From the IMG/VR virus record IMGVR_UViG_3300035208_001150: 14,346 nucleotides of DNA, one strand, 5' to 3'. Position numbers and translations under genes: made by a program. This DNA is from a virus. Positions 1-2,126 of the stretch are shown here, piece after piece (positions within the stretch are counted from its first letter, which is position 1; every line of letters starts with the position of its first letter). The notes below the pieces were generated by a model. It worked only from the letters and a program-made list of their open reading frames with translations. It was not told the DNA's origin and did not search any database.

Positions 1-1131
1 GATTCCACGCCTACAAATTTCAGTGGAAGCATTTGCTGGATCGAAATCATCAAACAATACATTTCCAATAAAACTTGAATAGCAAGGATTTACTTCAATC
101 AATTGAATACCATTAATGTTGCAATGTTTATTTATTAAATTTGTCTGATAATCAAGATTCCAGACATTTTTTGTTTTTCTGTTTGCTTCTTTTGAATCCA
201 AATTTGATTTGAAATTTAAATCTTCCATAACAAAATAAGCAACCTTATAATGTTTAAGTAAATCAAATAATTTACTATAAATAACACCAATTTCATATTT
301 TCTTTTGTTGTTTAAATAAATTGAATTCTTATCATCAGATGATTTATTTGATTTTTTTAAAAGATCACTTAAATTATAGGTAAATCTATCATAGATTTTA
401 TTTTCATCCATAATTGTAACACCAATGTAATCAGGGTTTAAATCAATTCCACAATACCTGTTTGATATTTTACCAATTAATTTTCTATCATTTTGTTCGG
501 TTTTATGTTTAATATAAATTTGTTTCTTTAATTCCTTGCTTTCAATGGTTTTAACATCCATCTTATATTCTTTTTCATCAAACCCATAACCGTTCAATAT
601 TTCTTCATCAAAAGAAACCATTAAAGATTTAAATGTTAATTTGACTGAAATTGGTAGAACATTTAAATCCTTGATTTCTTGTAATTTAATTAATTGATTT
701 TTATATTTTTTTGAAATTGTGTAAGTTAAATTTATTTTAGTTTTAGATTCTGGTTTATAAATGATTGAATTGTTTATAAAATCAAATTCAAAATATCTAT
801 TTGAATTTTTATCATTTAATGATCCAACATAATTTATAGGTAAGATTCTTTTTGAACGATAAAGATTGGTTTTTTCTATGATTTTAAGATTATTTAATTC
901 TTTATTATTATTTAAATACGAAATTTGTTTTAATAATGATCTTGAACCAAATGTTATATCCTTTGATAAATTTTTATTCTGTTGTTCAATTTTTTTATTT
1001 AATTTAAACTGGACTTTGATTTCTTTGATGGTCTTGTTTTTTATTTTAGATAATCTTTCTATTTCTTTAGTATTTTCAAGAATTTCTTTTTCTAAGTTTT
1101 CTTTATTTGTTTGGATTTGATTTAATTTCAT
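1..1131 (-). CDS. tnpB: TnpB/Fanzor-like RuvC-fold nuclease (IS200/IS605 OrfB family); 5' end (N-terminus) is in the window and the C-terminus runs off the left edge
   Basis: I translated the minus strand by hand from the ATG at 1131 as one open frame to position 1 (about 377 aa). The motifs seen are 'RYCGIDLNPDYIGVTI' (RuvC-I D), 'AYFVMEDLNF' (RuvC-II E), 'IQLIEVNPCYSSF' (compare TnpB 'VDPAYTSQ') and 'DFDPANASTEICRRG' (compare the TnpB C-terminal 'DADxNAAxNIxRRG'). No CxxC..CxxC zinc finger lies between the last two motifs. This gene is missing from the supplied ORF track, presumably because it is partial. Confidence 0.7.
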   Translation of the reverse strand, partial: MKLNQIQTNKENLEKEILENTKEIERLSKIKNKTIKEIKVQFKLNKKIEQQNKNLSKDITFGSRSLLKQISYLNNNKELNNLKIIEKTNLYRSKRILPINYVGSLNDKNSNRYFEFDFINNSIIYKPESKTKINLTYTISKKYKNQLIKLQEIKDLNVLPISVKLTFKSLMVSFDEEILNGYGFDEKEYKMDVKTIESKELKKQIYIKHKTEQNDRKLIGKISNRYCGIDLNPDYIGVTIMDENKIYDRFTYNLSDLLKKSNKSSDDKNSIYLNNKRKYEIGVIYSKLFDLLKHYKVAYFVMEDLNFKSNLDSKEANRKTKNVWNLDYQTNLINKHCNINGIQLIEVNPCYSSFIGNVLFDDFDPANASTEICRRGI

Positions 1132-1370
1132 GTTCAAATCAATTTTTAAACAATTTAATTCATAAACAGATAACTTAAATTTTGTTTTTATATAATCAAG
1201 ATACTTAGGATCAGATATTTTATCAGAATGTTTATATAATTTTCTGAAAGCATATGAATAATTTTTCTGTTTATTTAATATATAATTATCATTGTCTGTT
1301 GTAATATCAAATTTAATTGTTATCATTAAACTATATATAAAAATTATATAGTCAATTTTTTTTGATAACT

Positions 1371-1408
1371 TTATTTTTAATTATTTTTAATTATTTTTAA
1401 TTATTTTT
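1371..1408. repeat. 10-bp tandem repeat 'ttatttttaa' in about 3.8 copies, overlapping the stop of gene 1401-2126
   Basis: Read directly from the sequence: 1371-1380, 1381-1390 and 1391-1400 are identical units, followed by a partial fourth copy. Confidence 0.9.
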
Positions 1409-2126
1409 GGTTTACAATTTCTACTTCTTCAATATTTATGATTTTTAATTCGGTATTATTAATGAAATTTATTTCATTTTCACCATAATAATTAATTCTA
1501 TTATCAAATGTTTGATACCAATCAATATTACTGATATTTGTTTCAATTTCTATAACAAAAAACTTTTCATAATCATAATTACCTTGATAATCAATAACAC
1601 CTATTTTTTCGAGAAAATCATAACTTGCTGTGTTTTCTTTATCAATTGTGAAATGTTTACCTAAATTATTTTTGTCAATTTTATTTATATCATCAATATT
1701 TAATAAACGATACGCTTTTATTGTATTATTTTTAATTAAAGTTTTTAATTCTTCATAAGCATTTTCCAAATTTTCTTGTAATTCATAATCTAAATCCTTA
1801 TTCTTAAAATAAGAATATACATCATCTATATTATTATTCTTATTTTCATTCAAAAAATTTTCATCTATTGGATGTTCATTTAGATATATATTTTGTTTAA
1901 TTTTTTTCAATTGTAATTCAGCTAAATCACGAACTTTTTTATTTGCATCTAATGTCATTTTAGTCCTTTTCTTAATATCATTTTCAGATGGTATTCGTCT
2001 TCTTAAAGCTTTTATACTTTTTTGCAAATGAAGAATGCTTTTATCAATATTTTTCTTTAATTTAAAAGGTTTTTCTAAATTATTTTTTATTGGTTTAAAA
2101 TTTTCAAATGTTTTTAAATATTTCAT
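1401..2126 (-). CDS. hypothetical protein (241 aa, Lys/Asn-rich)
   Basis: Track ORF on the same strand as the neighbouring TnpB-like gene. I recognise no motif. Confidence 0.5.
   Translation of the reverse strand: MKYLKTFENFKPIKNNLEKPFKLKKNIDKSILHLQKSIKALRRRIPSENDIKKRTKMTLDANKKVRDLAELQLKKIKQNIYLNEHPIDENFLNENKNNNIDDVYSYFKNKDLDYELQENLENAYEELKTLIKNNTIKAYRLLNIDDINKIDKNNLGKHFTIDKENTASYDFLEKIGVIDYQGNYDYEKFFVIEIETNISNIDWYQTFDNRINYYGENEINFINNTELKIINIEEVEIVNQK

Follow-up and report, generated by a model that had tools for sequence, protein, structure and literature searches.

Cas12 evolved from TnpB, from which compact genome editors are also developed, and to our knowledge every solved TnpB or Cas12f structure carries a TNB domain (zinc-ribbon) between RuvC-II and RuvC-III. 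The C4 zinc-ribbon is typical of TnpB and not universal, some large branches being devoid of it (PMC10691335); one clade, RIIIr-4 (Altae-Tran et al. 2023), is reported to lack the C4 zinc finger and to occur preferentially in viruses, and is defined by an Asp-to-His change in RuvC-III (PMC10691335). In Fanzor the RuvC-II Glu has moved to a position just upstream of the zinc finger, and classic IS607 elements have GG ends, insert at or downstream of GG and use G-rich TAMs (PMC13565253). An element of Campylobacter phages that bears the ISfinder name ISCaje4 was annotated in 2010 as an IS200/IS605 'transposase' only, with neither the loss of the zinc finger nor an RNA mentioned (Timms et al. 2010, PMC2853527). 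The gene analyzed here probably encodes a TnpB of a divergent clade of OMEGA nucleases found in large and huge bacteriophages, where it is carried on IS607-like and solo-tnpB elements. On the sequences compared, it appears to be an unusual variant of the known mobile RNA-guided nucleases in which the loss of the zinc finger is family-wide. The kind of element is not new, because zinc-finger loss has been surveyed (PMC10691335) and a relative has had an ISfinder name since 2010.

The window, by which we mean the whole stretch of 14,346 nucleotides of viral DNA that was analyzed (IMG/VR record IMGVR_UViG_3300035208_001150), contains the 5' 83% of the tnpB gene, whose reading frame is still open at base 1, the left edge (Table 1). 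Full-length homologues of ~530 amino acids (P0001, 95% identical) place the start at the ATG at 1326 (MITIKFDITT...) and leave ~88 residues beyond the window, correcting an earlier note on this DNA that had begun the gene at 1131, where the Met corresponds to residue 66 in those homologues, and had supposed ~30 C-terminal amino acids to be missing. The remaining 88 codons, together with the RNA and the right end, lie outside the window and were read on L003, which has 96% nucleotide identity to it. The D/E/D motifs of RuvC that the earlier note had recognized in TnpB order were found on the minus strand as D295, E368 and D429. In the structure model these residues are located, respectively, at the end of the beta-strand 287-296, at the end of the strand 362-368 (the canonical beta-4 position, and within the TIGR01766 match) and at the N-terminus of the helix 429-443. 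The canonical RuvC-III motif is D-x-N-A-A, and the motif at D429, D-P-x-N-A-S, has one extra residue between the Asp and the Asn. The segment from NPCYSSF to RuvC-III, put by the same note at about 10 residues without CxxC, has nine (IGNVLFDDF) and no Cys pair; within the family, 189 of 194 members show the motif D...[AS][AS].E[ILV] 9-12 residues past YSSF. The 5' flank is probably the left end of the element or its promoter, and a copy with 79% identity (L004) has this same flank with diverged 10-mers, but an unrelated 3' flank.

Table 1. Location of the tnpB features in the window
Feature	Position	Strand	Remarks
TnpB-superfamily gene, first 442 of ~530 codons	1..1326	-	cut off by the window edge
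Catalytic Asp of RuvC-I (codon D295; motif GIDLNP)	442..444	-	invariant in 42/42 aligned members
Catalytic Glu of RuvC-II (codon E368; motif FVMEDLNF)	223..225	-	invariant in 42/42 members
Catalytic Asp of RuvC-III (codon D429; motif FDPANASTEICRRG)	40..42	-	invariant in 42/42 members
NPCYSSFIGNVLFDDF segment, residues 413-428, usual site of the C4 zinc-ribbon (TNB), insertion absent	43..90	-	no CxxC pairs
TIGR01766 (TnpB-related domain) match, residues 339-418	73..312	-	E=4.9e-8, 33.3 bits
5' flank with perfect tandem 10-mer TTATTTTTAA x3.8 at 1371-1408	1327..1413	-	tandem-repeat search

The resemblance to TnpB goes beyond chance, because the TIGR01766 match of the window fragment (E=4.9e-8) lies above the cut-off of 32 bits and more than 420 homologues were recovered. 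The same model matched 37 of the 42 members (34.6 bits for P0001), and with NF040570 (guided_TnpB), whose cut-off is 100 bits, the window fragment scored 12.5 bits and four members matched (best 4e-7), far under that cut-off. The Pfam model PF01385 (OrfB_IS605) found nothing in the 42 members and left the fragment blank even at E<=10, a result that the earlier note had named as speaking against its own assignment, and PF07282 yielded a single weak match in the 42 members (E 0.05). We attribute the failure of PF01385 to the limits of the Pfam model, because TIGR01766, NF040570 (in four members) and the fold comparison all give TnpB/Cas12f. Searches of PDB sequences with phmmer and with the family profile returned no match, and neither did a search of PHROGs with the protein. 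Foldseek against the PDB gave Cas12f (5.5e-8) and Cas12k (8.6e-7) as the best structural matches. The protein aligns with TnpB, Cas12f and Cas12k over 273-376 residues, beyond the RuvC core alone, and the WED-REC-RuvC build common to the solved TnpB/Cas12f structures is present in the window-type protein. The invariant triad and the fold comparison support the assignment to a TnpB-like RuvC nuclease; the curated sequence models, taken together, give a mixed picture. Unlike Cas12f and Cas12k, the family has a single RNA in the 3' part of the transcript in place of a repeat-spacer array, and no TNB domain; no CRISPR array was found in the window or in the 252 nt that follow tnpB on L003.

Examination of the family for the zinc finger extended to all its members what had been noted for the window copy. 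Two CxxC motifs within one protein were found in none of 258 family proteins, taken over their whole length, and the family alignment has no conserved Cys columns; these 258 are the members retrieved for the count, and the family profile reaches only ~1500 clusters, so that the family stands well apart from the bulk of TnpBs. The tail of ~88 residues outside the window, read in the full-length homologues, has no zinc finger either. Throughout the clade the zinc-ribbon (TNB) insertion that separates RuvC-II from RuvC-III in other TnpBs is deleted, and in its place there is an extension of ~90 amino acids after RuvC-III; both differences hold against the canonical TnpBs of ISDra2 (PDB 8h1j) and ISFba1 (PDB 8iaz). 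Further differences from canonical TnpB are the Pfam results given above, with no PF01385 match and one weak match to PF07282, and an RNA without a match in Rfam. D295, E368 and D429 are nevertheless kept invariant across the zinc-finger-less family, and dN/dS is 0.11 over the 442 open codons of tnpB. The loss of the zinc finger is shared with RIIIr-4, from which the window family differs by retaining the Asp at D429 in every member. Because the target-strand-loading domain of Cas12f/TnpB is missing, activity could differ or be lost despite the intact triad.

The source of the window is a tailed huge bacteriophage: its neighbouring genes include a phage gp30.3 domain and matches to PHROGs, and its MVP-like neighbour protein is shared only with phages of 462-735 kb. 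A giant-virus source had been considered and was abandoned once phage neighbours and homologues turned up; with 9 occurrences (8.2 expected), the octamer AAAATTGA of Mimiviridae early promoters is not enriched. Relatives sit in phage contigs of 100-400 kb, often in several copies per genome (2-3 per phage contig), and genes for UvsW, SbcCD-like and head/neck proteins are found near them in Caudoviricetes genomes and IMG/VR phage contigs. At ~12 distinct loci tnpB is immediately preceded by a gene for an IS607-type TnpA (MerR-HTH plus Resolvase, 200 amino acids) that overlaps or abuts it, and the majority of the family copies are solo. The tnpB of the window stands alone, as the earlier note had stated, with no TnpA next to it and with an unrelated upstream ORF (1401-2126) that has no family match above cut-off. 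Because TnpA is absent here and present upstream in ~12 related loci, we take the window copy to be a solo tnpB of an IS607-associated clade. The same gene at the same locus was recovered from several samples (L001-L003), and L003 and L004 share no sequence after the right end; the 330-aa ORFs of the window and L004 are unrelated and therefore uninformative on rearrangement. The contigs retrieved by an exact match to the neighbouring 241-aa protein all stop inside or just before tnpB. Across the TnpA-upstream regions the loci are too diverged to define the left end and the TAM of the window's clade, a common left end being seen only in L067 and L085.

The 3' part of the gene encodes a covarying multi-helix RNA formed by the last ~250 nt of the gene and 16-31 nt after the stop codon. 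It consists of a long 5' stem-loop, the hairpins SL1 and SL2, a long-range helix P3 that encloses P4 (a hairpin across the stop codon) and a tail of 6-7 nt. In an unfitted MAFFT alignment SL1 and SL2 were 80.3% paired against 63.3% after shuffling, with covariation of 0.478 against 0.209 and none of 500 shuffles as high; the duplex energy of P3 was -8.6 kcal/mol for its own arms and -4.5 kcal/mol for cross-pairs, and RNAalifold recovered four helices with no prior input. A covariance model (R1) located the RNA at 52 gene ends, and its alignment, which is fitted to the structure and includes several closely related sequences, showed compensatory change in 33 of 35 pairs and 86.8% pairing (64.4% shuffled). 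For the upstream stem-loop the values were 94.3% against 74.4%, with covariation in 14 of 23 pairs. G.U accounts for ~13% of the paired cells of the covariance-model alignment, a pattern consistent with the sense strand only. Over the final 55 codons dS is lowered in 12 of 15 pairs. Rfam has no family that matches this RNA; the family is probably under-annotated, because both Pfam and Rfam miss it. The nucleotide similarity of paralogues ends 12-37 nt past the stop codon, and the RNA ends exactly at the right end of the element, the point where paralogous copies, and filled versus empty sites, stop matching. Right ends in the clade of the window read ..GGTATCTAA or ..GTATATAA. Judging by its position, the RNA has the layout expected of a putative omega-RNA. 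The earlier note had placed a guide-RNA region just outside the window, and a guide-RNA-like structure is indeed present on L003 and across the family. From L003, which shares the 5' flank, we infer that the RNA of the window copy lies ~31-283 nt past the window edge, and its right end is predicted at ...TTTTGGTATCTAA, ~283 nt beyond that edge.

Among named elements, ISCaje4 (Campylobacter phages CP220, WX1 and F379) has a TnpB that belongs to the zinc-finger-less family (QYSSFIGN...LPDYVLASIEIGRRG), with ~30% identity across residues 156-502. It bears the same 3' RNA (model R1, E=5.9e-6) and the same sharp right end, which in comparisons of filled and empty sites is the end of the RNA model, and in WX1 a serine-recombinase TnpA lies upstream. 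ISCaje4 insertions resemble those of IS607: inverted repeats are absent, and the target is not duplicated except for a 2-nt core. Unlike the GG of IS607, however, three independent ISCaje4 insertions have TT at both junctions (target ..TA|TT..), and the right ends in the clade of the window are ..CTAA or ..ATAA. In each of the three targets (T/A)TA|TT lies on the 5' side of the flank presumed to act as guide, a hint at a TAM. A 3'-anchored, retro-like insertion was considered for those ISCaje4 copies that vary at the 5' end, and it was set aside because all three junction pairs fit an ordinary serine-recombinase crossover with a TT core and a cryptic or alternative left site.

Placing these results into a mechanism requires analogy with characterized TnpB proteins, from which RNA binding, the use of a guide, a TAM and RNA-guided cleavage would follow, and we regard the overall explanation as probable. 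Processing of the 3' part of the transcript would yield an omega-RNA that takes as its guide the adjoining ~16-20 nt of DNA past the right end, and the ribonucleoprotein would cleave element-free copies of the same site beside a T-rich motif. Repair by recombination with a genome that bears the element, for example that of a co-infecting or replicating phage, would then restore or spread it, and the serine-recombinase TnpA, where present, would carry it to new sites. More tentatively, and with the balance somewhat against all its parts holding together, the family could be an RNA-guided nuclease without TNB in which the C-terminal extension of ~90 amino acids, its codons doubling as guide-RNA scaffold, takes over substrate loading. 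Such an enzyme would recognize a T-rich TAM of about WTATT, its partner serine recombinase would cross over at TT and not at GG, and in lytic huge phages the element would spread from one co-infecting genome to another as an RNA-programmed homing drive.

Other explanations have to be weighed against a mobile RNA-guided nuclease. The missing zinc finger, the lack of Pfam matches, the gene cut in the window and the absence of TnpA would all suit a degenerate IS remnant or pseudogene, one of the two options in the earlier note; we consider this very improbable, because dN/dS is 0.11 over 442 open codons, the triad is invariant and zinc-finger absence is common to every one of the 258 members retrieved from a family of ~1500 clusters, the cut being that of the window and contig edge only. 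The label 'Fanzor-like' given in the same note is hardly credible, since the neighbours and all the relatives are tailed-phage sequences, prokaryotic TnpB and Cas12f outscore Fanzor, a eukaryotic or giant-virus TnpB homologue, and E368 (in MEDLNF) keeps its canonical place where beta-4 ends, 45 residues ahead of NPCYSSF and not beside a zinc finger. A free-standing RuvC-type endonuclease that uses no RNA guide, with the 3' structure serving as a terminator, an mRNA-stability element or the right-end site of the recombinase, is improbable: the alignment with TnpB, Cas12f and Cas12k takes in 273-376 residues and not the RuvC core alone, and an RNA of ~250 nt and five helices, with covariation in 33 of 35 and 14 of 23 pairs, far exceeds a terminator and occupies the omega-RNA position. 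The sense-strand-specific G.U pairs also argue against a recombinase site, as the substrate of serine recombinases is duplex DNA and a fold specific to one strand is not required.

A somewhat better case, still an unlikely one, can be made for an exapted copy that is immobile and serves the phage as an RNA-guided weapon or homing drive against competitors, or that cuts host or plasmid DNA. Such domestication would agree with the strong purifying selection on tnpB, with the persistence of the gene at one locus in several samples (L001-L003) and with the lack of TnpA in the window and in the majority of family copies; solo tnpB genes are, however, the norm for mobile TnpB elements (PMC10691335). 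Moreover, the closest relatives occur in differing 3' contexts, L003 and L004 having nothing in common past the right end, and the layout of the RNA makes the flanking DNA the guide, hence the target would be the element's own empty site. The homing and selfish-element roles are in any case hardly separable in a lytic phage.

Under the reading as a mobile RNA-guided nuclease, the family would constitute a natural test of whether the TNB domain is dispensable, as the triad and a guide-RNA-like scaffold are kept and the elements are apparently mobile. It is also a possible scaffold for editors, the TAM being probably T-rich. If the TNB-less reading is true, it would amount to a new minimal RuvC architecture for enzymes of the TnpB/Cas12 type and to a new phage-phage gene-drive system. 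Large and huge phages are the only carriers of the family, which is a candidate for RNA-guided homing where phages compete with one another. Within the family, ISCaje4 and the element of the window differ in size and host: the TnpB of ISCaje4 (465 amino acids) belongs to a class of ~440 amino acids with a shorter N-terminal/REC part and comes from a 175-kb Campylobacter myovirus, whereas the class of the window has 530 amino acids and its host is a huge phage.

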